Source: Eledone cirrhosa (taxonomy: Eukaryota). Taken from it: 64,000 nt of DNA. The notes beneath the pieces are model-generated. The model saw nothing but the letters and a program-made list of their open reading frames with translations, did not search any database and was not told where the DNA came from. Positions within the stretch are counted from its first letter, which is position 1; each line of letters starts with the position of its first letter. The translations under genes and the position numbers were made by a program. Positions 4,573 to 53,194 of this stretch are shown here, one piece after another. The stretch covers positions 297,042,001 through 297,106,000 of the forward strand of contig OZ024741.1 of the NCBI GenBank assembly GCA_964016885.1, in the 5' to 3' direction.

Positions 4573-4660
4573 TATATCCACACACACACGCAAGACAGTG
4601 AGGTTATTTAGCTCTAGTATATCTATATATTTCCAAGCTATATATATATATATATATATA

Positions 4661-4856
4661 TGTTTATCCCGGGTTCAATCGAAGGTAACCACAGTAAGTA
4701 AGGTACACAATACATAGCAGAGTATAGATATTTAATATAGAAATGGCTTCTACAGGACTAGAACTGTTTCATTTGTTAGAAATCATCAGGGCTTCCTGAT
4801 GATTTCTCCCGAATGAAACAGTTTTAGTCCTGTAGAAGCCATTTCTATATTAAATA
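4661..4856. mobile_element. Penelope-like element end (family 2) with short fold-back, between (TA)n tracts
   Basis: Homologous to 52371-53207; inverted arms at about 4728-4790 and 4795-4856. Confidence 0.7.
4790..4840 (+). ncRNA. Type I hammerhead ribozyme motif (family 2)
   Basis: GGCUUC-CUGAUGA-UUUCUCCCGAAU-GAA-ACAG(UUUUAGUC)CUGU-A/GAAGCC; intact core, GUA cleavage triplet. Confidence 0.8.
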
Positions 4857-4871
4857 TATATATATATATAT

Positions 4872-5323
4872 GGTGGCTGCCAACTCGTTTTCGAGTACGG
4901 CCACTACTTTATATCCATATAGGAGAACCCCTACCGATGCGCTGAACGAGTGTGACCTTTTAGTCCAGCCAGCGACTTGAAAACTCTGGTACAAACACTA
5001 CACTTGTGACAATTATTGACACATAGTGCTGGGCCCATGGTATCATGTGACGACAAGTGCAGAGAGATCTCCAGATACAAAGCAATGCCTGTGCCGTGAA
5101 GCTTTTATAGTGAGCAAAGACACTGCACAAAGCCAGTCCCACTCTCTTAACCGAGATGATATTTACCAAAAAGAAGAACAAGTCAACATCATTGGATACC
5201 ATCAGAGTTGCAGGTGTTATATCAGAGTTTTCCTTCTCCTAGAATTCTGCCTTGACAAAGGCTAAGGGGTCATCTCTCCCGATGATTTTGGATGGCCATT
5301 GACTCTTAAGAGCTCCTTTGCCC
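4872..5323 (-). mobile_element. Probable RTE 5'-region-derived non-autonomous element
   Basis: Minus strand has CTAGGAGAAGGAAAACTCTGA, resembling RTE 5'UTRs; bounded by (TA)n on both sides. Confidence 0.4.
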
Positions 5324-5340
5324 TATATATATATATATAT

Positions 5341-8300
5341 ACTTACTTGTACTTATGTCGAGATTCACCCTGGACGGGTTGAGCCGGCTTCTTCCCTTGT
5401 CCTGACGGCATCCTGAACCATGGCAGCCCATGCACGACGGTCCCGAGTTAGATCACTGGAAATAGCGAGCCAGTCACGGTTCCATTGGCTCAGGCCGACC
5501 ACCTGCGGACCTGAGAGTTCGGAGAGGTCCTCCTTGATCGTCGTTGCCCAGGTCTTCAGCTGCCCGCCAACGCGCTTGCGCCAGTTAGGGAGTGGAGGTC
5601 GGAGGAGAACATCGCGGATCAGCTCACCCTCAGGGCGCCAGGCTGCGTTGCAGAAGCACTGAAGGAAGGTGTCAAAGATTCAGGCGAAGACGAAGACTGG
5701 CGGTAGGTACCTGATCAATGCGTCGGCAGCAAAGAATGTGGCGGGGACAGTCATTGTCGAAGACCTCCAGCCCTCGTTGATCGACTACCCTCATAGGCCA
5801 TGTTTCATAGCCATAGAGGAGGATAGTGCAAACGACAGCCTGGTAGATTCGCCCTTTGGTCGCCGAGGTGATCTCTCCTCTGTCCCACAGACACCGCTGG
5901 AGGCACCCAAAAGCGGATCTGGCAGCACCTATTGACCTCGGCTGCACCCTGTCCCGTTGGAACCACTGTTGAGCCCAGGTAAATGAAGGACTCCACATCC
6001 TCCAGGTCCACGCCCTCGAGAGATATTGGCTGCCAGGCATCAGGCGAGACCAGTGACGTCATGACTTTTGACTTGGCGGCATTGAATCGTAGACCAACAG
6101 CAGCGGCTGCAGTGTGCACCCTTTCGAGAGCACCCTGTACATCTGTCCCGTTAGCGCCCATCAGCACGATGTCATCCGCGTAGGCCAGGTCCGTCACCAC
6201 GACTCCTCTCCCGACCTCTACGCCCGGGTAATCCCAGAGCGCTGTGTTGAGAGTGTAGTCAATGGCGTAGTTAAAGAGATTGGCGATAGCGCACACCCCT
6301 GCCGAACACCGGTCCCAACATCAAATGACTCCGTCTCCCCACCATAGACCCTCACTCGAGCCCAAGTCGACCGGTAGTAGCCTTGTATGAGACGAAGCAG
6401 CTTCACTGGGATGCCGTACGCCTGCATTATACGCCATAGGGCTTCCCGATCTACCGAGTCGAAGGCAGCTGCAGAGTCGATGAAGCAGAGGATGGTAGAT
6501 TGTTGATGTGCCCACCATTATTCCAGGACACGCCGGAGATTGAAGATTTGATCAACGCACCCCCTCCCCGGATGGAAGCCGCCCTGAGAAGGACGGGTTC
6601 GGACATCACGGATGGCCTGGAACCTCTTCAGCAGAAGGATTGCGAAGGTTTTGGCAGCAACGTCAATTAAGCTGATACCCTTGTAGTTGGAACACAGTTT
6701 CCTGTCGCCTTTTTTGAAGAAGGGTAGGAGAGTTGCCTCGCTCCAGTCACCAGGGAACCGCTCCGTCGCCCACACGGAGGAGAAGACTCGATGGAGCCAA
6801 GCTGCGAAGACATCAGGCTCGGCCTTGTAGACCTCAGCTGGAATGCCATCTTCGCCCGGCGCCTTGTTGTTCCGGAAATGTGTCAGGACACTACGTACCT
6901 CCTCAACCATTGGAGGCACAGTGCTGCACCCATATTCTTCTCCGGAAGGTTACACGTAGGTTGGCGTGGGTGGTGGTGGGTGGTTGAGCAGCTCGGAGAA
7001 AAGGTCCCGCCATCGGACTAGCCGGTCATTAAGATTGGTAATGACTGCCCCGTTCCGATCACGGATTGTCTCGCTGATACCCGTACTGCTTCGGCTGGCC
7101 CGCTTCACCAGTTGGTAGAGCTTGCGCGAGTCACCACAGGCTGCTGCACTCTCCATCTGCTCCGCAAATTCATGCCAGTGTGCATTCCGATCGGCCCAAA
7201 CAGCCCGAGATGTGCGACGTCGGAGATCTCGAAGATTGGGTGCACCCTTGAGTTGGGCCACTCTCACCCTCTTTGTGAATTCTAGAGTGCCGCTGGAGAT
7301 TCAGTCCCGATGGCGTCTTTGGGTTGACCCAAGATGCTCTCTGGCCACCTCAACCGTCACCGCGTTCCACTCCTGCTCTGGTTGCTGTTCCAGCATTTGG
7401 AATCGGTTTCGCAGCTCTAGCCGGAAAGCATTTCCAGCATCGAGCTTGAGTCGCGAGATGTCGATCCTTTTCTGACGGTGGGGAGGAGGTTTCGCCTGCA
7501 GCCACAGATGAAGGGTTGCTTGTACAAGAGTATGGTCTGACCCATGCTCACTGCCCGTATCAGCCCCTCGATATGCACGCGAGTCCAACACTGAGCTGGC
7601 CCAACGAGATCTGACCAGGATGTAGTCAATCTGATTGGCTGTTCTTCCGTCATTGGATCACCACGTGACGAGGTGACGCCGAGGATGTTGGAACCGGGTG
7701 TTGGTGACAATAAGACGATTGGCATCTGCGAAGGATACGAGCCATTCACCAATGTCACAGCGTACGCCTAGGGCGAAGCGTCCTAGAATATGCCGTGTTG
7801 TATCATCAGCCGGTCCTGTCCGCGCATTCCAGTCCCCAGCGACAATGAGAACGTCACTTGTTTGGAGATCGGCATAGAACTGCATCTTGTCCACCTCGTC
7901 CGCATTGAGTGTGGGAGCGTAGACGGCAATTACGCTGATGTTGGAGATTTGACCCTTCAATCGAACCAGCGCGAGTCGGTGTGAGATCGGCTGCCATACC
8001 AGCAGAGCCGCTTGTGTGTCGGGGCTGAGTGCTACAGCGACCCCGTGAAGGCCACTGTTGTCAGTCCCGCCACTATGGTTCAAGTGGTAGGAGATGTCCT
8101 CGCCAGGAACTTTGATCGGAAGATGACCAACATCAGGAAGTCAAACTTCTGAAAGGCAAGCGACACTAATGCAGTACTTGTGCAGAGCCTTCATTGTAAG
8201 TGCCTGGACACCGTCGTCACGAAGTGTTCAGACATTCCAGCACGCCACCGTCAATTCCTTCCTTCGTCTGAAGAGCGGGACTACTGCGGGAGTAGTCTGT

Positions 8301-8712
8301 AGAGCCATAGAGGTAGGACCGCTGTTGCTTTGCATTGCGTTCATAGCGGGAAGGTAATTCATATTCATAGTTCGTATCTGTAGGATTCATGGAAGTAGTG
8401 AATTCACAAGTGGTCCCCCAAAAAACCCGCATGTATATCCCGAGCGAAGGTAAAAAACGTCCTGTTTGCCGCAGATTCTCCACAGACGCAGGGACAGAAA
8501 CGACCCGAAGCCGCCGGCTGCCGGAACAGACACCTCTTGGATTTTCACCAGAGCCCCTTTTGCCGGGTTGCAGCCCTAATACCGCTGGGTGCCAGACCAA
8601 TCCGCCTTGGGTGGCCCTACCAGGAACTGAAGTTCCCGACGGCATAGCTCTGACACTACCCATTACCACTGCCCTGCCACGTTGAGGAGGGGTTGGACTT
8701 TAGGGATCGGAT
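5341..8712 (-). mobile_element. Apparently full-length GC-rich RTE LINE (APE endonuclease + RT), disabled by frameshifts
   Basis: 5' RTE motif CGTGGC..GAGCTATGCCG..AGGGCCACCCAAGGCGG; VYAPT, AGDWNA, GSDH; GVRQGCALSP, LAYADD, LLYGYETW; TAAG-type tail; inserted between (TA)n tracts. Confidence 0.92.
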
Positions 8713-8727
8713 ATTTATATATATATA

Positions 8728-9589
8728 TAAATGAAAAATGGTGTGCTGTGTTGTTGCAAATGTGATATACAAATTAAAATGAAGAATTAGAAATAGAAGC
8801 CAGGACTATCCATCATCAGTGGTCTACTAGCCATCATAGGTATTTCTTCGCATTAAAGACCAGATACCTCAGGCGAGCGCGAACAATAACTGAAATAAGT
8901 TATTGGGATAAAAAGAATTGGATGGAGAAAGAGAGACAGGTAAACAAACACGAATGGTGAGGCAACGTAAAGAGAGTAAACCACTGATGATGGATAGTCC
9001 TGGCTTCTATTTCTAATTCTTCATTTTAATTTGTATATCACATTTGCAACACAGCACGCCATTTTTCATTCCTATATGCTTTCTCCTTCGCTGTGATCTG
9101 TCTTTTTCTCTTCCTTTACTGCTATCCTCTTTCTCTCTCCCCTTTCTCCTTCTCCCTCTTACTTTCATTCACTCCCTCTGATAGTCACCCTCTCTCGGCT
9201 AGCCTCTTCCTCACACTTTCACTCACTCACTCTCTGCTACTCACCCTCTCTCTCACTTCCTCCATCGTCCCATTTCTTTCCTCGCTTACTTTTCACACGG
9301 TTAAGATGTGTCTTTTGTCTTCTCATCAATATTCGCAAGTTCTTATGTTCAAATGAATCATTGACTTGATTTTCTCATTTTTTCCTCTCTTTACGTTGCC
9401 TCACCATTCGTGTTTGTTTACCTGTCTCTCTTTCTCCACCCAATTCTTTTTATCCCAATAACTTATTTCAGTTATTGTTCGCGCTAGCCTGAGGTATCTG
9501 GTCTTTAATGCGAAGAAATACTTATGATTGCTAGTAGACCACTGATGATGGATAGTCCTGGCTTCTATTTCTAATTCTTCATGTTAATT

Positions 9590-9592
<3 letters not shown>
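8728..9592. mobile_element. Penelope-like element ends (family 4), inverted plus partial tandem arrangement
   Basis: Part of 8728-8975 is the reverse complement of 9385-9590; 8981-9030 directly repeats the 9539-9590 end; CTGATGA half-hammerhead; (TA)n flanks. Confidence 0.65.
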
Positions 9593-9649
<57 letters not shown>

Positions 9650-9658
9650 GTATATATA

Positions 9659-9816
9659 TGAAAAGAGTCAGGACCCCGACAGCTAAATCCGAACAGTTCA
9701 AATCTAGCTGTCAAAAAGGCCGGAGCTCAGCTGTCATATTACCCACTCTACTACCCAAGTATTGAGTACTCTGGTGCATTATGGTCCACCTGGTATCTTA
9801 CCACACCCTCTTTGTC

Positions 9817-9817
<1 letters not shown>
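9659..9817. mobile_element. Rearranged family 1 Penelope-like end
   Basis: GAAAAGAGTCAGGACCCCGAC and ATTACCCACTCTACTACCCAAGTATTGAGTAC match 3353 and 3212-3290. Confidence 0.65.
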
Positions 9818-9849
<32 letters not shown>

Positions 9850-10027
9850 AGACAGTGAGATTATTGAACCCTATATATATATATATATATTTCTAGGCTA
9901 TATATATATATATATATATATACAAGATAGTAAAGTTATTTAACTCTAGTAATTCTATATAAATCCATGCTATATATATTTGTGGGTTTGCTATAATTAT
10001 ATGTTGTTTGTTTTTACTTTGTCCTAG

Positions 10028-10096
10028 TCTATGAATTAGGTAGAGAGGAGGAACTTGAATCAGATTCAGAGAATATTCCGATTCCCGATATAGAGA
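10028..10096 (+). CDS. Coding exon of the unidentified acidic protein (FYELGREEELESDSENIPIPDIE)
   Basis: tttttactttgtcctag acceptor, A|GTAAGT donor, 69 nt, phase 1-1. Confidence 0.65.
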
Positions 10097-10693
10097 GTAA
10101 GTTAGAATAAACTACTTTTCTAGTTTTCAATTAACATATTAACCTATTATAACGTTATCAACATATTAACCTATTATAAAGTTATTATTTAACTCATTAA
10201 CCTATCATAACCTTAATCCTGCCGATGTTAGCTTTGTCTTTCATCCTTACGGGGTTGATAAAAGAAAGCACCAGTAATGCACTGGGGTAATAGCTGGCCT
10301 TGTGCCAAAAGTAGAAACCTTATTTAACCATTATTTAAAACTTTATTATTTAACATATTAACTTATTATAACCTTATTATTAACATATTATAACCTTATT
10401 ATTTAGCATATTAACCTATTATAATCTTATTATCAACATATTAACCTAGTATAACGTTATTATACACAAATTGTTGGTCAATTCTTGGCAGCAGCGTTTG
10501 GTTCTGTTTATAAACCATTATACATTTCACTGAATGTAAGATTGTTGTGACTGAACATTGTGGATATAGTCATCACTTAATATAATTTGAATAAACCTTT
10601 AAACATTCATACTTTTCTCACCATAAACTTTCCACAGTGTGTGTGTGTCTTATTTGCATCAAATTCTATGTTGTATTTTGTTTTACACAATAG

Positions 10694-10860
10694 ATAACAA
10701 TGATTGTGAAGATATTGAGGAATTACCCCGTCCACCAGAGACTATTCTTCTTATCCACTCCACCATCTTTTTAGAGAAAGGATTAGATCTTGTTCCAATT
10801 GCAGAAATCTTTGTTTTCTCTAAAGATGGCATAATTGGAATGAATTGTTTCATTATATAA
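10694..10860 (+). CDS. Last coding exon of the unidentified protein (NNNDCEDIEELPRPPETILLIH...GMNCFII*)
   Basis: tag acceptor in phase 1, open to TAA at 10858-10860, then AG|GTAAGT donor and tttttag acceptor at 10995 (3'UTR intron). Confidence 0.6.
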
Positions 10861-11134
10861 AGGTAAGTTACAATTTCATTATTTTTACATTTTTAAATAC
10901 TTATCAATTATAGGTTTCTATTTAATCTCTTCATCAATATATTATATATTCATGTATGTTTCATATCAATTTTGTCTTGGTTTATTTATTTTTAGGCTTG
11001 TGAAATCAAGTGGATATATTACTTGAAATATAATGAAATCAAAAGACAAATTATATTACATGAGTGATGAAAGAAACACCAAGTGTAGAAAGATGAAAGA
11101 ATGGAGTCAACAGTCAAAAAGAAAGAAAACTAAA

Positions 11135-12890: not shown

Positions 12891-13734
12891 GCCATAATTG
12901 GAATGCTTGTAAATGAGCCACATTTAAAAAATTTAATAAAATTATATAAAATTATATGAATTGCCTTTTTGAATAAAATATTTTTTTCAATATACTATCA
13001 TGTTGAATAAATTAACTTTAGAATATAAAATACTATTATTAAAGGTTTCATTTGAATTCACATTTCTAGACATTACGCTAAAGTATATTGAGTATATAAG
13101 GAGCAGTTGTAGTTATGTGGTTTAAAGGTTCGCTTCTAAAGCATGTGGTCCCAGGTTCATTCCCTCTGCATGGCACACCTTGTGAGTGAAATGTGGTAGA
13201 TGGGTCTCTCTGTGGAAGCCTTTTGTGTGTTTGTCTATGTCTAAACTTCCAAAAGGTGGTAAATTGGAGTTGTTAGAATGTCGGGTAGAATGCTTTGCAG
13301 TATTTATTCTGACACTCTACTCTCAAATTTTGCCAATGTCAACTTTGCCTTTCATCCATTTAAGGTCGATAAAAAAAGTAGTCAAGTACTGGAGTTGATT
13401 CTTCCTCTATATCTCTTTCTCACTTCCATTCTCTCACTCTTTCTATCCTTCTCTGGAAGAAATCTGCTGTATTCAGACAAGGAGAGGAGATGGACTCTGC
13501 CAGATTTTAAAATGCCCCAGAAACGGCATATGTCAACATGGCAGCCATACAACGCCTTCAGAAGTTACAGGTACATACATATCGAGTAAAGTGCAAGATT
13601 GGACTGCAACCATGCTGGGGCATGGTCTTCCAAGTTTTATTGAATATATTGAGCCAAGGATATTTTTAAAGTCTGATATTTTCAGTTTCTTTCTCAAACC
13701 ACTGTTACAAGGCACACATAAACAGAACCAGTTT

Positions 13735-14925
13735 TTCAGAGATAATTGCCTTGAATCAAAAAACCTTAAAGTTAACTTGTCTAAAACTAAAGTTCTAGTA
13801 TATAGAAAGGAAAATAAGGTACAGCTTTCCTCTGGGAAATGGCCTTGCTCAGTGTGTAGGAAAAGAGTAGGTAGAAATTCCATTCTCTGTCCCAAGTGTA
13901 AGCTATGGGTACATAAAAGATGTAGTGGGATCACAGGCAGGCTATCAAAGAACGTAGGTTTTATATGTGGCCGATGCTCAGGTGCAATAAGTAACAAGTA
14001 CCCATAGGATACTAGCTCCTTCAACTGCCCAGATGGTTCTATAGAAATAGTAGACACTTTCCGTTACCTGGGTGACAAAATCAGCAGTGGAGGAGGGTGC
14101 TCTGAAAGTACTGTAGCGAGAGTAAGAACAGGAAGGAAAAAGTTCAGAGAGCTAATACCGCTGTTGGCCACAAAAGGTTTTTCCCTAAAAATGAAAGGCA
14201 GATTGTACGATGCTTGTATACGAATAGCAATGTTACATGGTAGTGAGACCTGGGCGCTGTGCACAGATTGGAAAGAAATTAAGCATGCATGCTCCGATGG
14301 ATGTGTAATAATAACATACACGAACGGCAAAGCGTAAATGAAGTGAGAAATTAGGCATAAGTGGGATCAGAGGCAGTATACTAGGGAGGAAATTGCGTTG
14401 GTATGTTCATGTGATGCGTATGAAGGACAACAGCTGTATAAAAAGTTGCAGGGCATTCAAAATTGATGGAAGCTATGGAGTAGGAAAACCCAGAAAGCCC
14501 TGGGACGAGGTGATAAAAAGCTGACTTTGCACACTTGCACTTCTCAAAGACAATGACACAGGATCGAGATCTTTGGTGCTATGCAGTAATACAAAAGACC
14601 GCCTTCCCTTGTGCATGGACTCAAACAGACACTCAGTAGGTACTTCTTAATCCAATATACACACCCCACACCACCCTTACTCTGTAAAGTTATGTTGGTA
14701 TCAAAGAACCATCCAGCCCACACTGTAAAGTGGTTGTGTAGGAGACACGGCAAATTGCATCCAGCACTCACTGTAAATGTGGTTGGTGTTAGGAAGGGCA
14801 TCCAGCTGTAGAAATCCAACCAGAAACAGTCCTATATGAGCGAGACAAAGTCACCCGACCCAACTTGCCTCTAATAAGACAAACCTGTTTAAATCATGCT
14901 AGACATTAAACGATGATGATGATAC
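13735..14925 (+). mobile_element. 5'-truncated RTE LINE
   Basis: LKVNLSKTKVL, WPCSVC..CPKC..HKRC..CGRC, 3'UTR and (GAT)n tail. Confidence 0.85.
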
Positions 14926-25653: not shown

Positions 25654-25687
<34 letters not shown>

Positions 25688-25710
25688 GAAGAAGAAACAC
25701 AAACACTCAC

Positions 25711-27341: not shown

Positions 27342-30300
27342 TCATCATCATCATCATCATCACCGTTTTACGTCCGTTCTTCCACGCTAGCATGGGTTAG
27401 ACGGGTTGTCCTGTTGTGGGCAGTGTCTGGTCGGCTGACCATGCCTTGCTCATACAGGAACTGATCTGGCTTGATTTCTACAGCTGGATGCCCTTCCTAA
27501 CACCAACCTCATTTACAGTGAGTGCTGGGTGCTTTTTCGTGGCGCCTACACGTCCACTTTACAGTGTGGGCTGGGTGCTTTTTTTGCCGTGGCACCTCCA
27601 CGACCACCTTGCGGTGGGGGGAGTGGGGGCATATTGTTTATATGCTTCAGCATGTACCCATGGGAGGTCGGGTACCCTGTATTACTGCGTGACGCCAGAA
27701 GTCACGGTCGTGTGTCATTGTCTTTGAGAGGTGTAGTTGGGTAAGGTCGGCTTTTATCACCTCATCCCAAGTCATCTTGGGTCTCCCCACTCCGCGGTTT
27801 CCATCAACTTCTAGTGCTCTGCACCTTTTTATGCAGCTGTCATCCTTCATACGCATCACATGTCCATACCAGCGCAACCGCCTCTCCTGCACGCAGCATT
27901 TGATTCCTCTTATGCTCAGTCTCTCTCTCAATTCCTTTATGCTTTGTCGTTCACGTATATTACTGTTACACATCCATCGGAGCATGCAGGCTTCGTTTCT
28001 CTCTAATCTACGTAAGTCTTCCACCTTCAGCGCCCAGGTCTCACTACCATGCAACATCGCTGTTCGGATACACGCATCATACAGTCTGCCTTTCATTCTG
28101 AGGGAGAAGCCTTTTGCAGCTAGCAGTGGTAGTAGTTCCCTAAACTTCTTCCATCCCGTTCTTACCCTAGTTATTGTACTTTCTGAGCACCCACCTCCGT
28201 TGCTAATTCGGTCACCTAGGTAGCAGAAGCTGTCTACTGTTTCTACAGGGCCCTCCCAGAGATTGGTGGTACTTGTTTCCTGTGGCTGTTTGCTTGCTGT
28301 TTCAGCACAGCTGCTGCATGTGAATCCTACATTCTTAATTAAGCTTCCTGAGATCCCGCTACATCTCTTGTGTACCCATTGTTTGCATTTGGGGCAGAGA
28401 ATGGAGTTCCTACCTACACCTTTCCTACATACTGAGCAAGGCCATTTCCCTGAGGGGATCTGGGTTCTGTTTTCTTGTCTACTTACAAGGACCTTAGTCT
28501 TTGTCATGTTGACTTTGAGGCCCTTTCTCTCTAGTCCCTGCTTCCAGGTTTGGAATTTATTCTCTAGTTCTACCATAGATTCAGCTATGAGTGCGAGGTC
28601 ATCAGCATACAGGAGTTCCCATGGGCATCCGGTCTTAAACTCCTCCGTTATTGCCTGCAGGACTATGATGAACAGGAGAGGGCTAAGAACAGAGCCCTGG
28701 TGGACCCCAACCTGTACGCTAAATTCCTCGCTATACTCATTGCTAATCCTAACTTTGCTGACTGCTCCCCTATACATGGCTTGTACCGCTTTCACAAGCC
28801 ATTCATCTACTCCTAGTTTTCTAAGAGCCCACCAGATTACCGCACGTGGAACTCTGTCAAAGGCTTTCTCAAGGTCGACAAATGCCAAGTAGAGTGGCTT
28901 ACTTTTAGCTAGGTACTTTTCCTGTAATTGCCTCACAAGGAAGAGGGCATCAGTGGTGCCTCTCCCTTGTACAAACCCAAATTGCATCTCGTCTATATTC
29001 ACCCGGTCCCTAATCAGCTGTGCTATAACTCTTTCTGTTACTTTCATGACCTGGTCCATCAACTTTATACCTCTATAGTTTCCTCTATCTAGTGCATCGC
29101 CTTTACCTTTGTAGCAGTTGACAATGATGCTACTGCACCAATCTTTTGGTATGGCCCCTTCTAGTATTACCTGGTTAACGATACGTGTGGTTATAGTGTG
29201 ACCTACAGACCCAGATGCCTTCAGCATCTCGGCAGCTATACCCGATGGACCGGTTGCCTTCCCCATCTTCATATCTCTGATTGCCTTACTTACTACGCTG
29301 CCGCTGACTTGTACTGCTGGTCCCTCTATAGGGTCTACATGGGGTAGGGTCTCTTCTTCCCATGCATTCTCCTCATTTAGTAATCTATCATAATGACTCT
29401 TCCATGCATCTTTCTTCTCAGCACTTGTGAGGGCAAGCTCACCTTTATCATTCCGGATACACTTCTCTCCAATGACATCACAACTATCTCTGACACACTG
29501 CCTCACAATCTTGAATACCTCTTGTTTCTGGTCCTCACGTTGTAAAACATGCTTGAATTTTCTATCCTCTGCTTCCCTCCTAGCTAAGTATACTTGTCGC
29601 CTAGCTTCCCTCTTGGTCTCTATGTAATGTACCCTGCTCCCCCCGTTCTTCCATTCTTTCCATGCCTGTCTCTTGGCCTTGACTGCTTCATCTACCTTAT
29701 TGTTCCACCACCAAGTCACTCTCCTCCTGCTTGAGGTCTTACTCCAGCCACAAACCTCATCCATCGCCTCTAGTAAGTTATTTTTTAGGAACTCCCAGTT
29801 CTCTTCTACGTTAAATGTCTCTATCTGTTCTTCTTTACTGTCGTAGGCGTTGAGTAAAATATCTTTAAATCTGTTACTGGTTGAGGGGACTTTCAGCTTC
29901 CAGATCTTTCTTCTCCAGGTTGGCCTGTTTCCGGGTTCGTCTAGTTCTGACCGTGAGGTCGCTGACAACTAAGCTATGTTGGGATGTACATTCCTCACTA
30001 GGGAAGGCTTTTGTATTTACGACCGTCCATCTGTCACGTCCTCTGATGAGGATAAAATCTAACTGACTAGAGTGCTCCCCTGATCTATAGGTGATCAGGT
30101 GGTTGTCGGGTTTTTTAAAGTTTGTGTTACATATCGACATGTCATTGGCGTCGCAGAATTCTAGAAGTCTGAATCCTTCCTCATTCCTTGTGCCAACTCC
30201 ATGGCCTCCATGTACTCTATTGAAGCCGTCGCAGTGTTTACCTACGTGTCCGTTAAAATCTCCTGCAATGATTAGGAAGTCCTTGTCGTCTGTTAGAGCA

Positions 30301-35181: not shown

Positions 35182-37851
35182 GTGGGGTCGAAATTTTATA
35201 TTCTGAGTCCACATATTGCATGGTGTTCATTTTGTATGAAAAATAAATGAACAAATTTTAAAAAGTATGCGATCACCCCTACCCCTCGCATAGCCCCCTC
35301 ACCTAATTCTGCGTTTTGAATACTGAAAATTTAAGGAACTGTAAACTTGTTTTAATGCTATCAGCTTTGTATTGGTTAAATATTACCTATATAACTTTTT
35401 ATAAATTATATGCAATTCCACCACCTGAAAAAAACAGTTATTGGAATCTATTTATTTATATAGTTTGTATTAATTCTTTTTATAAAAAAAAAAGCCTATA
35501 TTAAGAAAACCACTTTCAATGTATAAATAATGTAAATTCTCAATGTCTATTATGATGTGCAATAAAAAAAAACTATGCACAAATCTCAAACGAAATACAT
35601 GAACAGTGAACACCATAAAATAAGCTTTAATAGTTTTTACTATTTAATTAAATGACCATTGTCTTTGCCAGTCCAAGTGAGGTAAACTTTGTCTTGATTT
35701 CTATACATTTAATATGAATGTGTGCCTATTTTCGTAGCCTATTCTGACTTCAGAAGCTTTTGTCACTAAATTGATAGCATGCTCGACTCCTTGGCTATGA
35801 GAGGGAAGAGGTATTGCTATTAATGATCCTGAACGGGCTTTAAGAATATCAACATTTATAAAGTTCCATAAAATTGGAGAGGATGTTATAACTTCATTTT
35901 CCCAACATAAACCGGTGCTTTAAAATTAATTTTGCCTGGTAATTTGAAATTTCTTAATTCTTCGTGGGACATTCAGGGAAAAGTTCTTGCTTTAATAATT
36001 TGCTGAATTGCTACTTCCCTAATTTGTCTTCTTCCATCATTCAGCATAGTCAGTAAAATATTCTCCGGATGAGCAAAATACGAATTAGTTTTTAATGATT
36101 TCTCCATAACTTCTTTATGATCTTGGTTCATATCTTGCATTAGATGTATGTGCCATATAACAAAAATTACTTGCTCCTTCATGTAACTTTGGGTGAGATT
36201 TAATCCAGAACCAGCTTGGAGCATAAACTTGCGTTATGATTTTAACAAAATCCATAATATTCTTTTGGGGATTTTTTCTGAAACATATAAGTGAAGAATT
36301 CTGTTTGCACATGTTAACCACCTTGCATGATGGATTTTACCAGGTGATCTCTTTGCTTGATAGGTATTTTGTTTAATTTATAAGCAGATTAACTAAAAGT
36401 AAGCCACTCTACTTGGCATTCGTCGATCTCGAGAAAGCCTTTGACAGAGTTCCACGTGCTATAAGCTGTGGGCTCTTAGAAAACTAGGAGTAGATGAATG
36501 GCTTGTGAAAGCTGTACAAGCCATGTATAGGGGAGCAGTCAGCAAAGTTAGGATTAGCAATGAGTGTAGCAAGGAATTTAGCATACAGGTCGGTGTCCAC
36601 CAGGGCTCTGTTCTTAGCTCTCTCCTGTTCATCAAGACCGGATGCCCATGGGAACTCCTGTATGCAGATGACCTCGCACTTATAGCTGAATCTATGGTAG
36701 AACTAGAGAAGAAATTCCAAACTTGGAAGCAGGGACTAGAAAGAAAGGGTCTCATGGTCAACCTGACAAAGACTAAGGTCCTTTGTAGGTAGACGAGAAA
36801 ACAGAACCCAGATCCCCTCAGGGAAATGGCCTTGCTCAGTGTGTAGAAAGGGTGTAGGTAGGAACTCCATTCTCTGCCCCAAATGCAAACAATGGGTACA
36901 CAAGAGATGTAGCGGGATCTCAGGAAGCTTAATTAAGAATGTAGGCTTTACATGTAGCAGCTGTGCTGGGACAGCAAGCAGCAAACAACCACAGGAAACA
37001 AGTGCCACCAATCTCTGGGAGGGCTCTGTAGAAACAGTAGACAGCTTCTGCTACCTAGGTGACCGAGTTAGCAGCGGAGGTGGGTGTTCAGAAAGTACAA
37101 TAACTAGGGTAAGAACGGGATGGAAGAAGTTCAGGGAGCTACTGCCACTGCTAGCTGCAAAAGACTTTTCTATCAAAATGAAAGACAGACTGTATGATGC
37201 GTGTATACGAACAGCAATGTTACATGGTAGTGAGACCTTGGCGCTGAATGTGGAAGACTTGCGTAGATTAGAAAGAAACGAAGCCTGCATGCTCAGATGG
37301 ATGTGTAATAGTAATATACGCAAACAGCAAAGCATAAATGAATTGAGAGAGATTTTCCCACTTGAGGCAAGATTGGTTGTCTTGCTTGTATAGGACTGTC
37401 TGGCAGGTTTTCTATGGCTGGATGCCCTTCCTAACACCAACCACGTTTACAGTGTGGACTGGGAGGTTTTTATCGTGTTACCTACACGGCCACATTACAG
37501 TGTGGACTGCTTTTTTTTTTTGTCGTGACACCTACACGACCTCATTTATTTCGGACTGGATGTTGTGGTACCAACATAACTTTACATCGAAAGGATGGTG
37601 TGGGGGTAATGGGACGGGGGTGTATTTTTGTTAAGAGGTGCCTACTGACTGTAGGTTTTGCTTTGTACTTAGGCAAGGCGGGTCTTCTGTATATATAGAA
37701 AATTAGGGTATTTAATTGTGAGGGGTATATGCGAGGGGTACGGGGGTCACATAACCCTAATTTCCATATATTTTATTTAAAATACTATTTGAAACTCTGG
37801 GCATACTGTGGAATTAAGGTTCCTTAAAAATGGTTGTGTTTCGACACCCCC
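35182..37851 (-). mobile_element. Decayed DDE DNA transposon (family uncertain, possibly Sola2-like) with nested RTE pieces
   Basis: Ends GTGGGGTCGAAA / TTTCGACACCCCC; inverted subterminal CCCCTCGCATA motif; transposase remnants HARWLT, YFAHPENILL, PSHSQGVE. Confidence 0.65.
36395..37352 (+). mobile_element. RTE fragment (same family as 27342-30385) nested in the DNA transposon
   Basis: GVHQGSVLS, LLYADD, WPCSVC..HKRC; followed directly by an inverted RTE 3'UTR at 37356-37690. Confidence 0.9.
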
Positions 37852-46065: not shown

Positions 46066-46153
46066 TTGGCTTGTGTCAGATGCTGTGACCCCAGGTGGAC
46101 CAGCAGTATCATTAGTAGGGGTCGAAACTGTCAAAGTCCATCTCAACAGCCAA
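46066..46153 (+). ncRNA. Degenerate hammerhead motif (family 5) in a probable Penelope-like remnant ending at (TA)n near 46290
   Basis: AGAUG-CUG[4 nt missing]UGACCCC..GGGGUC-GAA-ACU..AGU-C/CAUCU; outer pairing UUGGC/GCCAA. Confidence 0.5.
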
Positions 46154-46439
46154 TGAACCTGGAGTTCTGTATCTTTTGTTTGTAATTAATTTTTTTTTTA
46201 AGGTTTCCCCTTAAAAAAATTGTTTATCGTTTTGCCTTGTTTTCGTTTGTTGTCTTATCCTCTCTTTGTTAATTTTCTTAAGTTTTTCCTATATATATAT
46301 ATATGGAGTAGGAGATTAAAAGGCTATGGGAAGTGCCCCTTTTCCAATCTAATAATTAAAATAGAATATAATTATGTCCTATTTACAATACAGCAATGCA
46401 GTTATAAATAACATTATTATTATAGCAAGGTGGATAGAT

Positions 46440-46640
46440 TGGCAGGGCGGTGGATTGACAGTATCGGTAAAGGGTCGGACGCCATGCTTTGACGCATAGA
46501 GTTACGGCCCTTGCCATTCTGAGTTCAAATCCCGCCGAGGTTAACTTTGCCTTTCATCCTTATGGGGTCGATAAAATAAAGTACCAGTAATGCACTGGGT
46601 AATTGCTGGCCTTGTGCCAAAAGTAGAAACAATTATTATT
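46440..46640 (+). mobile_element. Meta-like SINE with target-site duplication, about 30 bp from the USP8 Cys-box exon donor
   Basis: Near-identical to 270-467; ATTATTATAGCAAGGT repeated on both sides. Confidence 0.85.
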
Positions 46641-46668
46641 ATAGCAAGGTAAAAGAAAGAGGGCTGAC

Positions 46669-46799
46669 CTATTTACATGATCAAGGTATGCGTCTTGGAG
46701 AAAGTATTTGAGTAAAGCATTAGTATTACTTAAGCACTGTATTATTGAGTTCATGTAGCAGGTATTACCAATATTTTTCAACCCAGTAAGTCCATGGTG
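46669..46799 (-). CDS. USP8: USP8 Cys-box exon ([23 protein letters not shown]...)
   Basis: GLxNxGNTCYMN catalytic Cys box; cag/GTCAGC; phase 0-2. Confidence 0.95.
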
Positions 46800-47755
46800 C
46801 TGCAAAAGTACAAGAAAACAACATTTAACATTTTGCTTCCACTGATCTGTGACTATATCCATCTTGGTTTAGAATAGGTGCACTATATTCCTGCTGGTTA
46901 TATGAGGTGACTAAACAGGTTGGTATCAGGAAGGGCATCCAGCCATAAAACACTGCTTCAAAAAGGATCCCATGACGAGTATGAGTATGGTTATGCCTGT
47001 CATGGGACCTTCAAGATTAAATCTTCCTTTAGCATGAAAAATGGCCTTAAATGCTTCTTGTTGTATATACATATTTCAAGTTTAAAATACATACACATAT
47101 AAAATAATATAACTATAGTGGAAAATCAGCTTGGTTAACTCACACAGCCTAGAAACCATCTATAGAAACCTCTCTGGTGCTGGTGCCATGATAGAATGCA
47201 CCCAATACACTCTGTAAAGTGGCTGGCATTAGGAAAGGTATCCAGCCATAAAAACCATGCCAAAAACTGAAACATATGTAAGCAAGAAAAGATGCCAGTT
47301 TGTCACAAGATTAACCTTCATCTAGTGCTGGTAGTCATTTTTTTTTTAGCTGAATTGGCGGGAGAGGTATGAAATGATGTGTCTTGCTTAAGGATGCAAC
47401 ATGCCACATAGTCTAAGAATCAAACCCACAACCTTACAATCATGAGTCCAACACCCTAACCACTAAGTGGTGGAACTTCATTCAATGTATAGTTGTTAGA
47501 TGAAATCATTTTTATATGTTTATATACTATTTATTTGATTCTCATTGAGGGGTGTATAACTCTACAAATTTAGTATTTAACATGTATGTTTAGTACAGAT
47601 ATTTTACATTTCTTTTAACACTAACATCATAACATTATGACATGGGATTGACAATTATTTTCTACCAGATGGTCTAACAACAGTCTAGATACTCCAAGAT
47701 AGCATTTCAGTAATATTTCCACAACTACAGTTGATATAGAACAAAACACACTTAC

Positions 47756-47813
47756 CACATTGCCAAACACGGGGTTCAAATTTCTAACTCGCACTTGATT
47801 AGGATTTGGTTTA
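47756..47813 (-). CDS. USP8: USP8 exon (SKPNPNQVRVRNLNPVFGNV)
   Basis: RNLNPVFG precedes the Cys box in human USP8; cag/GTAAGT; phase 2-0. Confidence 0.92.
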
Positions 47814-48354
47814 CTGTAAAGAGCTATATGACTGCTTCCAAAACTAACACATAAAAATAAGAGAATTTTTGTTAGTATAACCAGCAGGAAAAAATACAAC
47901 ATCAAACAAAAAAGAAATGTGAGTAAAAGGAAAAGAGAGGAAAGATGATGGAAAAGAAAGGAGGGGGACACAGAAGTGCGAGAGAAAAGAGATTTAGAAA
48001 GAAACGAAAGAAATATTTTAATGTCAACAATGTACAGATTATATATATATATATATAATATATATATATATAATATATATATATAACATATATATATAAT
48101 ATATATATATATAATATATAATATATATAGTAATAATAAATTTGAAGACTAAAATCCAAAGAGGTGAAAGCAGCGATTCTTTGCTTAAACTTTAATCTGT
48201 TATTTTAATAAATATAATATATATATATATATAATATATATATATAATATATATATATATAGATAATCAGATCCCGTCCCACCCTTGCAAGTAGGGAAAA
48301 GTGGACGTAAAATGAAATGAAAAATGAAAAATGATATATATATGTGTGTGTGGG

Positions 48355-49080
48355 TGAAGGCACATGGCTTAGTGGTTAGAGCATTGGGCTTGCAATCGAA
48401 AGGTTGTGAGTTCAATTCTCGGACCGGGTGATGTGTTGTTTCCTTGAGCAAGACATTTTATTTCATATTGCTCCAGTTTTCTCAGCTGTAGAAATGAGAT
48501 GATAGCACTGGGTCCCTATCATGCCAGTGTAAAGTGGTCGTGGATGTGCCACGGAAAAAAGCACCCAGCACTCACTGTAAATGAGGTTGGTGTTAGGGAG
48601 GGCATCCAGCTGTAGAAATCAAGCCAGAATCGGTTCCTGTATGAGCAAGACAAGGTCAGCCGACCGGACACTGCCCGCAACAGGACAACCCGTCTAACCC
48701 ATGCTAGCGTGGAAGAACAGACGTAAAACGGTGATGATGATATATATATATCATCATCATTTCATTTTATGTCCGCTTTTTCCCTGCTTGCAAGGGTGGG
48801 ACGAGAACTGATGCTGGCTTGATTTCTACAGCTGGATGCCCTTCCTAACACCAACCTCATTTACAGTGAGTGCTGGCTGCTTTTTTGCCGTGGCACCTCC
48901 ACGACCACTTTGCAGTGGAATGATAGGGAACCCTGTCCCTATCATCTCATTTCTACAGCTGAGTAAACTGGAGCAATGTGAAATAAAGTGTCTTGCTCAA
49001 GGAAACAACACATCACCTGGTCTGAGAATTGAACTCACAACCTTTCGATTGCAAGGCCAATGCTCTAACCACTAAGCCAT
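48355..49080. mobile_element. Tail-to-tail inverted pair of CORE-like SINEs
   Basis: 48355-48741 (+) and 48751-49080 (-), separated by (TA)n; same family as 941-1256. Confidence 0.85.
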
Positions 49081-49127
49081 ATATATATAGTAATAATAAT
49101 TAATTTCAAGACTAAAATCCAAAGAGG

Positions 49128-51247
49128 GCTCGATAAGGATAAATATATATCAAATATATAAGAACCGTAGAGCAAATATTTATTAAAATAACAGATTAAA
49201 GTTTAAGCAAAGAATCGCTGCTTTCACCCTTAACGGGATCTTCTAAAACTAACAAAGCCAATCTGTAAACGCAGAACTGGATATTTCAAAAAACGTTGCA
49301 ACCGGAGGAAGACAGGAAGACGATACTTTGGTTCGTGGAAACGTTCGCTGGCTAAGAACGGGAAAAAACAAATATAATACATCATTAATAGGAGCGGTGA
49401 AAAACAATTACGCGCAAAGACAGAACCATGTTTATGGTATAAAAGAGGTCGTAGACTAATGTTCTCTTAGGTGGTGCATAGAGACGTTCTCTGGCAATGA
49501 ACGAAAAAAACGAAGATAATACGTCATATGTGGAGCGTGGAGAACAATAGCACGCAAAGACAAAACCATGTAAATGGTATAGCAGAAGTCGTAGACTAAA
49601 TTCTAACTAGGAGACCAAATGAATCTCCGTTACAGAGTTAAGAACAAAGTAAATAAATACAATACAGAAGTAATAGAAATAAATAAATACATACACGCAA
49701 ACAAAAACGTACATACACAAGCATACGCAAAAACTTACCATAGGTAAACAAAACCATGCACATAAATATGTGTGTGTGTGTAAGCGTGTATACAAATAAA
49801 TAAATAATTATATAAACGTATATAAATAAATACGTATATAACAAGCGCACACACATACCTACATGTAAATACACGAATGTTCGGAGACGTAAGTCAACCA
49901 AAACATGAAGTACACATATACACACGCCCTACATACGTACGAACCTGCATACTCACACAGACGCAAAACTCCCGTATACACATAGCCGAACCATATGTAC
50001 CAGAATATATAAAAAAATTATACGCCATAACAATCAAATATACGTACGAGAAGGTATACGTACCTTCACAAAACATACGGAAAATATATACTTACCTATG
50101 CAAATAAGTAAAGATATAAACAAAACATATACTAAGCTCACCCAATTTAAGTTACACTGGGAGATCCTAGCTAGGACTAGATCGTATAATGGAAATAAAA
50201 GACCATGTGACCTCTGCGCCGCTGAGCGTTATACCCTAATGGATAGTACGATCTATACATGGATATTTTACGTCTCGATGTGGGAGCTAAGTATATGTTT
50301 TGTTTATACCTTTACTTATTTGCATAGGTAAGTATATATTTTCCGTATGTTTTGTGAAGGTACGTATACCTTCTCGTACGTATATTTGATTGTTATGGCG
50401 TATAATTTTTTTATATATTCTGGTACATATGGTTCGGCTATGTGTATACGGGAGTTTTGCGTCTGTGTGAGTATGCAGGTTCGTACGTATGTAGGGCGTG
50501 TGTATATGTGTACTTCATGTTTTGGTTGACTTACGTCTCCGAACATTCGTGTATTTACATGTAGGTATGTGTGTGCGCTTGTTATATACGTATTTATTTA
50601 TATACGTTTATATAATTATTTATTTATTTGTATACACGCTTACACACACACACATATTTATGTGCATGGTTTTGTTTACCTATGGTAAGTTTTTGCGTAT
50701 GCTTGTGTATGTACGTTTTTGTTGGCGTGTATGTATTTATTTATTTCTATTACTTCTGTATTGTATTTATTTACTTTGTTCTTAACTCTGTAACGGAGAT
50801 TCATTTGGTCTCCTAGTTAGAATTTAGTCTACGACTTCTGCTATACCATTTACGTGGTTTTGTCTTTGCGTGCTATTGTTCTCCACGCTCCACATATGAC
50901 GTATTATCTTCGTTTTTTTCGTTCATTGCCAGAGAACGTCTCTATGCACCACCTAAGAGAACATTAGTCTACGACCTCTTTTATACCATAAACATGGTTC
51001 TGTCTTTGCGCGTAATTGTTTTTCACCGCTCCTATTAATGACGTATTATATTTGTTTTTTCCCGTTCTTAGCCAGCGAACGTTTCCACGAACCAAAGTAT
51101 TGTCTTCCTATCTTCCTCCTGTTGCAACGTTTTTTGAAATATCCAGTTCTGCGTTTACAGATTGACTTTGTTAGTTTCAGAAGATCCCGTTAAGGGTGAA
51201 AGCAGCGATTCTTTGCTTAAACTTTAATCTGTTATTTTAATAAATAT
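49128..51247. mobile_element. Penelope-like element (family 3): ~960-bp inverted arms around a GIY-YIG C-terminal remnant
   Basis: Arms 49176-50139 and 50284-51247; the spacer encodes LHWEILARTRSYNGNKRPCDLCAAERY, the W.IL...Y...CxLCxxE motif of PLE endonucleases. Confidence 0.85.
51173..51223 (+). ncRNA. Hammerhead-like motif with variant core (family 3); mirror copy at 49200-49250 (-)
   Basis: AGUUU-CAGAAGA-UCCC(GUUAA)GGGU-GAA-AGCA(..)UGCU-U/AAACU, followed by AATAAA. Confidence 0.65.
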
Positions 51248-51291
51248 ATATATATATATATGTATTTATTAAAATAACAGATTAAATAACA

Positions 51292-52367
51292 TAGATTTTA
51301 CATGTGGCCGGTGCTCTGGTGCAATAAGTAGCAGCAAGTGCCCACAAACTACTAGCTCTTTCAATTGCGCAGAGGGTTCTATAGAAATAGTGGACAGCTT
51401 CCGTTACCTGGGCGATAAAATCAGCAGTGGGGGAGGGTGCTCTGAAAGTACTGTAGCTAGAGTCAGAACTGGTTGGAAAAAGTTCAGAGAGCTTATACCA
51501 CTATTAGCTGCTAAAGGGTTCTCACTAAAAATGAAAGGCAGGTTGTACGATGCCTGCATACGAACAGCAATGCTGCATGGCAGTGAGACCTGGGCATTGT
51601 GTGCAGAGGATATACGCAGACTAGAGAGGAACGAAGCTTGCATGCTCCGCTGGATGTGTAACAGTAATATACGTGAACGGCAAAGCATAAACGAACTAAG
51701 GAATAAATTAGAGATAAGAGGGATCAGATGTTGTTTACTCGAGAGAAGGCTACGTTGGTATGGACACGTGATGCGCATGAAAGTCGATAGCTGTATAACA
51801 AAGTGCAGGGCAATAAAGATAGACGGTAGTCACGGAATAGGCAGACCTAGAAAAACCTGGGACGAGCTGATAAACTCCGACATCACACACTTACACCTCT
51901 CCAAGACAATGTCACTGGACCGAGACCTTTGGCGGTACTCAGTAACAGAGAAGACCCGCCTTACCTAAATATATAGTAAAACCTACTCCAGCCAGTAGGC
52001 ATCTCTAACAAAATACACCCCGTCCCACCACCCCCACCCCCACCCGATCCACACCACCCCGTTCTATGTAAAGTTATGTTGGTGCCGCGCCATCGAGGCC
52101 GAAACAAATGAGATCGTGTAGGTGTCACGACAAAAAAACACACAGTCCACGCTGTAATGTGGCCGTGTAGGCAACACGGTAAAAACCTCCCAGACCCACA
52201 CTGTAAATGTGGTTGGTGTTAGGAAGGGCATCCAACTGTAGAAAACCTGCCAGACAGTCCTATGCGAGCAAGACAATCACTCTTGCCTCAAGTGGGACTA
52301 CCCCCGTCCAAACCCATGCAAGCGTGGAACACGGACGTTAAACGTTGATGATGATGATGATGATGAT
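51292..52367 (+). mobile_element. 5'-truncated RTE LINE with an open 192-aa C-terminal frame
   Basis: FRYLGD, MLHGSETW, RRLRWYGHV, GRPRKTW; (GAT)n tail. Confidence 0.9.
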
Positions 52368-52457
52368 ATATGTACGTTATTCCGGGTTGAATCGGAGGTA
52401 ACCACAGTAAGTAAGGTACTCAATACATAGCAGAGTATAAAAGTTTAAATATAGATG

Positions 52458-52508
52458 AGATTCTACAGGACTAGAACTGTTTCATTCATTAGAAATCATC
52501 AGGAATCT
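52458..52508 (-). ncRNA. Type I hammerhead ribozyme motif (family 2), co-oriented with the USP8 pre-mRNA
   Basis: Reverse complement of 53144-53194. Confidence 0.78.
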
Positions 52509-53143
52509 GGGTATCAAAAAATGAAAATGGTATTTATAGGTCTCTACAAGTGGTAGGAGGGGGTGGGGAGTGGGATGGGTGTAGGTCATTGGGTGATAGA
52601 AAAGGGAATTCATTAAAAGCTAATTCTACAAAGCTATAGTTTATTTTTATTTATTTATGTTTTTAGAGTAACAAGGGCAGACAGAATTCTATAAACAGGT
52701 TCCGGATGGCATACCATTCCTTGTCATTAAGTTTCCCTTAAGCTAACAGATGTCTATAAGATCAGTGGGGGGTCAGTCATGGTCGATAGTATTAAAGAAA
52801 AGGGAGATTCTTTAAAAGCTAAAATCATTTTAGCTTTTAAAGAATCTCCCTTTTCTTTAATACTATCGACCATGACTGACCCCCCACTGATCTTATAGAC
52901 ATCTGTTAGCTTAAGGGAAACTTAATGACAAGGAATGGTATGCCATCCGGAACCTGTTTATAGAATTCTGTCTGCCCTTGTTACTCTAAAAACATAAATA
53001 AATAAAAATAAACTATAGCTTTGTAGAATTAGCTTTTAATGAATTCCCTTTTCTATCACCCAATGACCTACACCCATCCCACTCCCCACCCTCTCCTACC
53101 ACTTGTAGAGACCTATAAATACCATTTTTATTTTTTGATACCC

Positions 53144-53194
53144 AGATTCCTGATGATTTCTAATGAATGAAACAGTTCTAGTCCTGTAGAATCT
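53144..53194 (+). ncRNA. Type I hammerhead ribozyme motif (family 2)
   Basis: AGAUUC-CUGAUGA-UUUCUAAUGAAU-GAA-ACAG(UUCUAGUC)CUGU-A/GAAUCU. Confidence 0.8.

Follow-up and report, generated by a model that had tools for sequence, protein, structure and literature searches.

Hammerhead ribozyme motifs from the terminal repeat of an abundant Hydra-clade Penelope-like element of Eledone cirrhosa and the likely start of its RNA

The stretch of 64,000 nucleotides from Eledone cirrhosa that we analysed, referred to as the window, contains three full hammerhead motifs in a strict type I scan, compared with 0.03 on average across 100 dinucleotide shuffles (Table 1). The two motifs named in the original prediction, here copies A and B, read as it described: both have the core CTGATGA...GAAA, stem III ACAG/CTGT and a GUA cleavage site, and stem I is GGCTTC/GAAGCC in A and AGATTC/GAATCT in B, with both pair swaps in place. 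Both are type I hammerhead folds by sequence, with CUGANGA, GAAA and UH around three helices and open at stem I, and catalysis is predicted. Two minus-strand cores, one full and one partial, had been overlooked. The Rfam search proposed along with the prediction matched no hammerhead model (E <= 1 in the window, E <= 10 in 53100-53230), and its miRNA matches were rejected as inverted repeats. Stem III had been described as longer than usual at 4 bp; the same ACAG/CTGT stem is already listed in the published Hydra table (PMC8557442) and only the 8-nt loop sets it apart. Loop III is normally identical in both subfamilies, and the difference at T4824 is private to copy A.

Table 1. Hammerhead motifs, insertions and putative promoter elements in the window
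Feature	Position	Strand	Remark
Type I hammerhead, older subfamily A (copy A)	4790..4840	+	predicted cut after A4834
Stem I, subfamily A hammerhead	4790-4795/4835-4840	+	
Core, subfamily A hammerhead	4796-4802	+	
Stem II, subfamily A hammerhead	4804-4806/4811-4813	+	
Stem III, subfamily A hammerhead	4818-4821/4830-4833	+	
Partial hammerhead core, stem I missing its 5' strand	4745..4789	-	second arm of insertion A
Insertion A, promoter-less fold-back mini-copy	4664..4856		
Type I hammerhead, young subfamily B (copy B)	53144..53194	+	predicted cut after A53188
Third full hammerhead	52458..52508	-	equals copy B over 51 nt; predicted cut after 52464
Insertion B, 5'-truncated pLTR	52370..53210		folded back at 52826
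TATAAATA box, likely core promoter	53114..53121	+	first T 30 nt before stem I
TATA box, minus-strand arm of insertion B	52531..52538	-	

Copy A forms half of an inverted repeat (4723-4790/4795-4862, 93%) in an insertion flanked by (TA)n on both sides (4639-4661 and 4854-4871). The minus arm carries the tail of about 90 nt, the plus arm stops about 20 nt beyond the cut site, and the arms join at the first nucleotide of stem I. This junction is explained equally well by 1-nt microhomology. We considered a MITE amplified as one unit as the source of the palindrome, but arm lengths and flanks vary and the identical junction recurs across several subfamilies, for which reason repeated events are preferred. 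No promoter accompanies copy A, and in its context the motif is predicted to be locked in a 68-bp hairpin and unable to fold as a hammerhead. Insertion B, also in (TA)n and with a tail on the minus arm only, folds back about 360 nt upstream of the cut site into arms that are 99% complementary (52442-52825/52827-53210), and matches the 3' end of an ORF-bearing element, L034, at 95%. Both window copies are probably inert fossils. Their arms lie head to head, and the head-to-tail array of short hammerhead units that marks a non-LTR retrozyme was not found.

The hammerhead core occurs 29,913 times genome-wide, against 2 for the control, and the 48-kb spacing of the two motifs is therefore meaningless. 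The motifs sit in the terminal repeat of a Hydra-clade Penelope-like retrotransposon (PLE) that is present in many copies and has the order hammerhead, tail, 712-aa ORF from +135, microsatellite-rich 3' region, hammerhead and tail (positions are counted from the predicted cut site). The suggested link to Penelope-type pLTRs is supported by the hammerhead pLTR, the GIY-YIG ORF, the partial tandems, the inverted 5'-truncated copies and the one-sided tail. A and B represent two subfamilies of this element, A being older (9.4% divergence) and B young (1.4%, with 40 of the 40 scored matches 100% identical).

The ORF is that of an EN+ Penelope by its YRDDGL and YIG motifs. A Pfam search with the protein gave no RVT_1 match and GIY-YIG only at E=0.02, and a PDB profile search gave no match, so that its identity as a reverse transcriptase rests on motifs; 636 homologues were recovered, the best with 43% identity over 99% of the protein. 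Hydra-clade features include the change from DKG to DKT (SSDKTKN), the linker CxCX5C (CNCLNKEAC), CxxC near the C-terminus (CDLC), the absence of CCHH and insertion into (TA)n. The RWK site reads RWR in 27 of 29 copies and RWK in 8 of 9 aligned database homologues, and after the conserved N, where homologues have CRH, L034 has C-x4-H rather than CxH. Frames were open in 14 of 29 copies over the 529 codons examined. A literature search, with most subscription papers and supplementary figures outside its reach, returned neither a report of this E. cirrhosa family nor a paper combining Penelope-like, hammerhead, TATA, transcription start and cap.

The original prediction had read the stem I covariation as a sign of selection on the fold. 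Selection is supported, mainly by the absence of majority changes between A and B at the 35 positions of the core, stems II and III and loop III (P ~4e-4), compared with 19 changes at 95 positions upstream of the motif. Loop II changed at 3 of 4 positions and stem I at 4 of 12, the latter amounting to two compensated pairs; helix pairs changed on both sides thus number 2 of 6 in stem I and none in stems II and III. Paired cells made up 96.8% in 29 distinct copies. The covariation itself is real but traces to two events within a single lineage, the intermediates including wobble and mismatched pairs, and neither double-change pair counts nor pair-type counts were better than in shuffles (437/500 and 334/500). 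The unchanged core, stems II and III and loop III are stronger evidence of selection than the covariation. Mismatched versions of stem I were themselves inserted (A.G in L282 and L295, C.A in L118 and L262), indicating that full stem I pairing is not strictly required.

These inserted intermediates could also be accommodated if the motif were kept as a promoter, initiator or protein site and the stem I swaps arose by templated arm-to-arm repair without catalytic selection. The motif overlaps the probable start site of the RNA, and in L195, L217 and L232 there are junctions at which the 5' arm has been restored with the 3' arm as source. Such an origin is nevertheless quite improbable, since loop II varies but no catalytic position does, wobble and mismatched intermediates speak for stepwise rather than one-step change, and the architecture is common to Hydra families of other phyla.

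Folding predictions weakened the earlier suggestion of monomeric activity. In stem II the three pairs are weak (pair probability 0.07-0.19) and a flanking U.U stands in place of the closing pair G10.1-C11.1, and the stem III hairpin is predicted at -1.4 kcal/mol versus -12.8 kcal/mol for a self-duplex via the invariant CUAG palindrome. The same U...U flank of stem II is seen in published Hydra motifs (PMC8557442). In the isolated 51-mer, the hammerhead fold comes to within 1.0 kcal/mol of the minimum for A and 0.3 kcal/mol for B; with the tail added to the sequence, the predicted minimum is a different fold and the hammerhead pair probabilities are <=0.1. Activity as a dimer seems more likely than as a monomer, and cutting is predicted to be weak and mainly dimeric.

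The TATA box stands at the same distance from stem I in both subfamilies. The 5'-most point fell at -47..-43 in 27 of 90 sampled tail-anchored insertions and at -5..+3 in 4; automated end-calling over-extended about 8 of the 90 junctions, most of which belong by eye at -45/-44. Among B-type direct target junctions, 235 were at -44/-45 versus 26 at the cut site. A-type direct junctions carry a G at -46, where the template has C, in 74 of the 100 listed (101 in total). An untemplated G is an accepted cap trace for L1 and SVA (PMC4859970), and the extra G at A-type junctions is likely a copy of the cap. The same test on B-type junctions shows nothing, with G before -44 in only 6 of 100, which fits only if the start is at -43 and the cap G mimics a template G, or if no copy of the cap is made. 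From these sequences, the short copies starting at the first nucleotide of stem I likely mark the start of the element RNA, which suggests that they derive from uncut RNA. A four-gamete test for a template switch at -45 versus +1 met homoplasy at many sites.

Two other explanations of the 5' ends were weighed. An efficient monomeric ribozyme could make the 5' end of the element RNA, just as the HDV-like ribozyme of R2 makes that of R2 RNA. The 8-nt loop III can close sterically, in contrast to the 1-3-nt loops of published Hydra motifs, the isolated fold is close to its minimum, 26 direct junctions do lie at the cut site, and one full-length copy (L034/L086) begins at +2. We nonetheless find this unlikely: the ends pile up at -45/-44 and not at +1, stem II is weak without its closing pair, and an invariant loop III beside a freely changing loop II is what trans pairing of loop III would produce. 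The cut site as the element 5' end, as L034 had suggested, was likewise rejected, with an end at +2 in 1 of 30 ORF-bearing copies and at -5..+3 in 4 of the 90 sampled insertions. As for the second explanation, a splice acceptor at -44, subfamily B reads T-rich...CCCAG|ATTC, and the intron of the D. virilis Penelope ends at helix I (PMC4209133). This is largely refuted and very improbable, given that subfamily A has GTC and not AG before stem I, and that truncated copies join target (TA)n or their own inverted arm with no shared upstream exon.

The ORF-bearing copies behave differently from the short ones. None of 30 stops at -47..-43 (Fisher p=0.0002 versus 27/90) and 23 extend beyond the TATA box (22 scored by script and L103 by eye), although these 30 are the best matches, and hence the youngest, rather than a random sample. 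The pattern would fit a cut and circularised template. Overall, we think it probable that these are terminal-repeat hammerheads of a Hydra-clade PLE whose capped RNA likely starts at the ribozyme, with cutting predicted to be weak and mainly as a dimer. Pol II would start at -45 (A) or about -44/-43 (B), and the element protein may prime reverse transcription at the tail near the RNA 5' end, for which another PLE provides an in vitro precedent. On uncut RNA, reverse transcription would meet the cap after about 135 nt and fold back, and dead minis like copy A would result. On a unit-long transcript, the end ribozymes could pair via the CUAG loop and cut, and ligation would then close a circle from which the enzyme, copying beyond one unit, restores the promoter; to this step we give slightly less than an even chance. 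That the ribozyme thereby sorts the RNA, uncut capped molecules yielding the minis of about 135 nt with a cap G and dimer-cut circles all ORF-bearing, promoter-regenerating copies, is a tentative proposal.

A comparably tentative alternative dispenses with the circle: the reverse transcriptase would jump from the cap to the 3' repeat, or use read-through transcripts, and the ribozyme would decap or turn over the RNA, or be a passenger. In the anole PLE, hammerhead mutants had no effect on insertion in vitro (PMC11167929), and both ends of the RNA carry a copy of -45..+90, in the manner of a retroviral R region. A jump from the cap should, however, often fail, as it does in the minis (27 stop versus 36 pass), whereas of the 23 ORF copies that the scoring places at -43 or beyond, none ends there; read-through templates are compatible with this.

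Hammerheads in Hydra-clade pLTRs are already published and the motifs themselves were expected; new here are the TATA box, the -47..-43 pile-up and the untemplated G. The role of PLE hammerheads is stated to be unclear (PMC8557442). The two-fate reading, if true, would amount to genomic evidence that PLE transposition passes through a circular intermediate, and the hammerhead would have a defined function. The value of the family is as a test system, with thousands of dated insertion ends in a young family, exact predicted start and cut sites and a visible stepwise path of compensatory change, making the choice between circle and jump directly testable.

The following comparisons refer to portions of the cited sources. 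Hydra-clade PLEs with a C-terminal EN and canonical hammerheads were described by Craig et al. 2021, including Hydra-1_Obim of Octopus bimaculoides (PMC8557442). The present element shares with them RW-, DKT, CxCX5C, CxxC, a C-terminal GIY-YIG without CCHH, (TA)n targets, a type I hammerhead, and tandem and inverted insertions with a one-sided tail. The U...U around stem II recurs in Hydra magnipapillata motifs, and the ACAG/CTGT stem III in Hydra-1_aMil, Penelope-1_NV and Penelope-1_SK, there with 2-nt loops. It differs from the clade in its palindromic 8-nt loop III (1-3 nt in published motifs), its AU-rich 3-bp stem II, its tail of about 90 nt (30-40), its length of about 4.9 kb with a long internal microsatellite (<3 kb), RWR in place of RWK, and the lack of the Hydra CxH in L034; its hammerhead also differs from that of Hydra-1_Obim (PMC8557442).

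Poseidon PAc of Anolis (Frangieh et al. 2024, PMC11167929) likewise has a tail set by two priming sites and uses mainly uncut RNA as substrate, and in the parts considered no ends fall at the cut site. Its hammerhead is protein-assisted. The element belongs to a different clade and its ribozyme overlaps the start codon, whereas the ATG here lies 135 nt beyond the cut site. The EN+ Penelopes of Adineta vaga (PMC3846280) and D. virilis Penelope (PMC2377424) also have pLTRs inverted head to head with palindromic junctions. A putative TATA/Inr is present in the Adineta pLTR, as here (PMC3846280), while D. virilis Penelope has a TATA-less internal promoter with an intron (PMC2377424); the sections of these two papers considered here report no start at the first base of the ribozyme and no cap-G trace. 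Non-LTR retrozymes (bioRxiv 10.64898/2026.07.22.740005) are also PLE-derived, with type I hammerheads and non-coding copies, but form head-to-tail arrays, unlike these head-to-head minis and partial tandems of an autonomous element. Finally, the hammerheads reviewed in PMC6765202 have in common with ours the pLTR location, thousands of scattered truncated copies, opposite-strand pairs, a palindromic loop III, a dimer model and a proposed circular template; here stem II is short, G10.1-C11.1 is absent and stem III is long, and the copy ends offer genomic evidence on the start site and the circle model.

A strict scan of the window found three complete type I hammerhead motifs; 100 shuffles of the same sequence gave 0.03 on average. 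Direct reading bore out both copies named in the original prediction, A and B, each of which forms an arm of its own inverted repeat, and an Rfam scan of the window, one of the checks it had proposed, returned no matching hammerhead model. The window is densely populated by fold-back insertions from several families, with 76 inverted-repeat pairs of at least 40 nt within 3 kb at positions 1-64000, and the segment with a 969-nt inverted repeat is, judged by its sequence, a second Penelope-like element (PLE) family. In the 3.0 Gb genome the core pattern had 29,913 matches versus 2 for a control pattern, or about one per 100 kb, so that two insertions within 64 kb are ordinary. Copy B had 449 candidates genome-wide (100% identity in 40/40 scored), and the B-type 5' half and A-type 3' half occurred at 9,199 and 7,834 places genome-wide. 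Genome-wide, forward matches outnumbered reverse ones for the core (16,600 to 13,313) and for the B 5' half (5,749 to 3,450), and the two strands were equal for the A patterns and the tail, the ~90-nt segment downstream of the hammerhead; somewhere in the genome there may be a large array of B hammerheads that lack the tail and all point one way.

Features of the window and of loci drawn from the genome (L-numbers)
Feature	Location	Strand	Description
Copy A	window 4790-4840	+	type I motif at 4796
Copy B	window 53144-53194	+	type I motif at 53150
Third type I motif	window 52502	-	
Fourth hammerhead core	window 4789-4745	-	5' strand of stem I absent
C-to-A substitution scored as compensatory	window 53146		would double as the new start base if B starts at -43, where the transcript's 5' ribozyme would keep only 4 stem I pairs
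Inverted repeat, 969 nt	window 49176-51247		99%
Fragment in this repeat	window 50140-50241		resembles C-terminus of Hydra-type protein, E=5e-7
Decayed hammerhead-like core, same repeat	near window 51176-51205		does not pass scan
LINE-type RT, then PHD finger	window 27647-29968	-	
Further PHD fragments	window 13399-14007, 36767-37393		
Mixed (TA/TG)n microsatellite	L034:6950-8790		~1.8 kb, inside element 3' region, common to many copies
Second Hydra-type ORF	L041:6941-9430	-	830 aa, 43% identical; ~95-aa Asn/Lys/Thr-rich insert after RT thumb
Another retroelement-like family	L031:5729-9379, 2487-4328	+, -	open frames of 1217 aa and 614 aa, nested between a pair of inverted B copies separated by 11 kb
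Minimal-hammerhead-like families in flanks	L013:3082, L010:2564, L002:2403, L026:1946, L017:910, L037:2733		at least five, unrelated; several head-to-head pairs, B elements sometimes inside
ORF-bearing copy starting at -51 right after (TA)n	L102, L222, L241		

The two copies represent subfamilies of different age, with private divergences of 9.4% for A (18 copies) and 1.4% for B (15 copies). Their majority sequences had 0/35 changes in the core, stems II and III, loop III and cut site, and differed at 3 of 4 positions in loop II, 19 of 95 upstream and 4 of 12 in stem I, the last making two compensated pairs. Pairing was kept in 96.8% of cells among 29 distinct copies, namely the two window copies and 27 others selected because their upstream sequence was intact (one truncated row was dropped), with A-type rows picked by a pattern fixing their 5' arm. 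Only two pair changes in this set were two-sided, and the counts were no better than shuffles. Sampled copies had the stem I versions GGCTTT/GAAGCC, GGCTTC/GAAGCC, GGCTTC/GAAGCT (wobble), AGCTTC/GAAGCT, AGATTC/GAAGCT and AGATTC/GAATCT, of which the mismatched AGATTC/GAAGCT intermediate, in L282 and L295, shows that the 5' change preceded the 3' change; the order of the versions was deduced from loop II and the bases next to it rather than a tree. Given the intermediates and the two both-sided pairs, we consider the compensation real and stepwise, consisting of two events; the making of a copy does not strictly depend on it. Selection on the fold, as originally proposed from the covariation, is supported mainly by the unchanged core, stems II and III and loop III; the two compensated pairs amount to two events on a single lineage, and mismatched copies were inserted as well.

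The isolated hammerhead fold is predicted to lie near the minimum (-8.3 versus -9.3 kcal/mol for A, -5.3 versus -5.6 for B), with predicted pair probabilities of 0.07-0.19 for stem II and 0.2-0.5 for stem III. The predicted energy of stem III is -1.4 kcal/mol for the hairpin and -12.8 for a self-duplex formed through CUAG, the latter weakened to -5.8 by the private T4824 of copy A; loop III is the same in both subfamilies and loop II differs. The near-minimal fold agrees with the monomeric activity previously thought plausible, whereas the weak stem II and the favoured self-duplex argue against it. Metazoan PLE hammerheads are described as cleaving poorly and as dimers (PMC4209133), and some as depending on the element protein (PMC11167929). 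The ACAG/CTGT stem III, earlier regarded as longer than usual, already appears in published Hydra motifs, as do U...U flanks, with loops of 1-3 nt (PMC8557442). In context, copy A is predicted to be caught in a -96 kcal/mol hairpin. Each arm of insertion B keeps a TATA box, so that a transcript running outward could get clear of the inverted repeat.

The main subfamilies of both types, A and B, have a TATAAATA box 30 nt upstream of stem I (which begins at -45, +1 being the first base after the predicted cut); in minor variants the distance is 24-37 nt. Using the tail pattern, 90 insertions were taken in genome order from the first 100 matches listed among 7,594; 59 of them are fold-backs. Automated calls placed the furthest 5' point at -47..-43 in 27, -42..-6 in 20, -5..+3 in 4 and beyond +3 in 3, with 13 more at -200..-48 and 23 beyond -200. 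On inspection by eye, about 8 of the upstream calls were over-extended, and most of these should be placed at -45/-44. Genome-wide, B-type sequence was joined to AT-rich target at 235 places at -44/-45 versus 26 at the cut site. A purine precedes 519 of 782 complete A-type 5' arms; 0/30 such arms examined continue upstream, and 26/30 pyrimidine-preceded arms do, with C templated at -46. Where A-type arms directly join AT-rich target, the base at -46 was G in 74, T in 12, A in 9 and C in 5 among 100 matches listed (hand count). In L1 and SVA, an untemplated G is recognised as a trace of the cap (PMC4859970). Since the minis, short promoter-less fold-back insertions, end at the ribozyme start and A-type copies carry the extra G, they were most likely copied from capped, uncut RNA starting at the ribozyme. 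B-type junctions have no extra-G pattern (G before -44 in only 6 of 100 listed), which would fit a start at -43 with the cap G mimicking template, or a cap that was not copied. The literature searched contained no report of this start-site and cap-G pattern.

None of 30 best-match ORF-bearing copies, selected on +41..+221, ended at -47..-43, versus 27/90 tail-sampled insertions (p=0.0002); 23 ran past the TATA box, five ended between +2 and about +42, and single copies ended at -51 and at -33. The templates of these ORF-bearing copies apparently lacked an end at -44. Such copies may arise from read-through transcripts or template jumps, with no circle. Cervera and de la Pena (PMC4209133) have proposed a circle that forms by cutting at both ends; if the ribozyme cut both ends of the RNA, the resulting circular template would account for the lack of -44 ends and, if true, give the hammerhead a function. 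More speculatively, the (TA)n right before the ORF-bearing copy that starts at -51 could replace its lost TATA box, and promoter-less copies may be rescued by targeting to (TA)n.

Extension of B loci yielded a near full-length element (L034) in the order tail, 712-aa ORF from +135, microsatellite-rich 3' region, hammerhead, tail and (TA)n, about 4.9 kb long given its internal microsatellite. The protein had at least 636 homologues (~40% identity) among 8,000 scored, and its RT was unrecognised by Pfam and PDB searches. It carries DKT, CxCX5C, CxxC and, at its C-terminus, a GIY-YIG-like part and lacks CCHH, as in the Hydra-clade diagnosis given by Craig et al. (PMC8557442), whose RWK is RWR here and whose CxH motif is absent in L034. 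The Asn/Lys/Thr-rich insert of the second ORF recalls the N-rich inserts of Adineta Penelopes. Both window insertions lie in (TA)n and consist of a tail-bearing arm and a second arm that is inverted and shorter, sharing the PLE layout described in PMC8557442. The carrier works like, and judged by motif is, a Hydra-clade PLE with a hammerhead in its terminal repeat (pLTR); the family is new, its kind is known.
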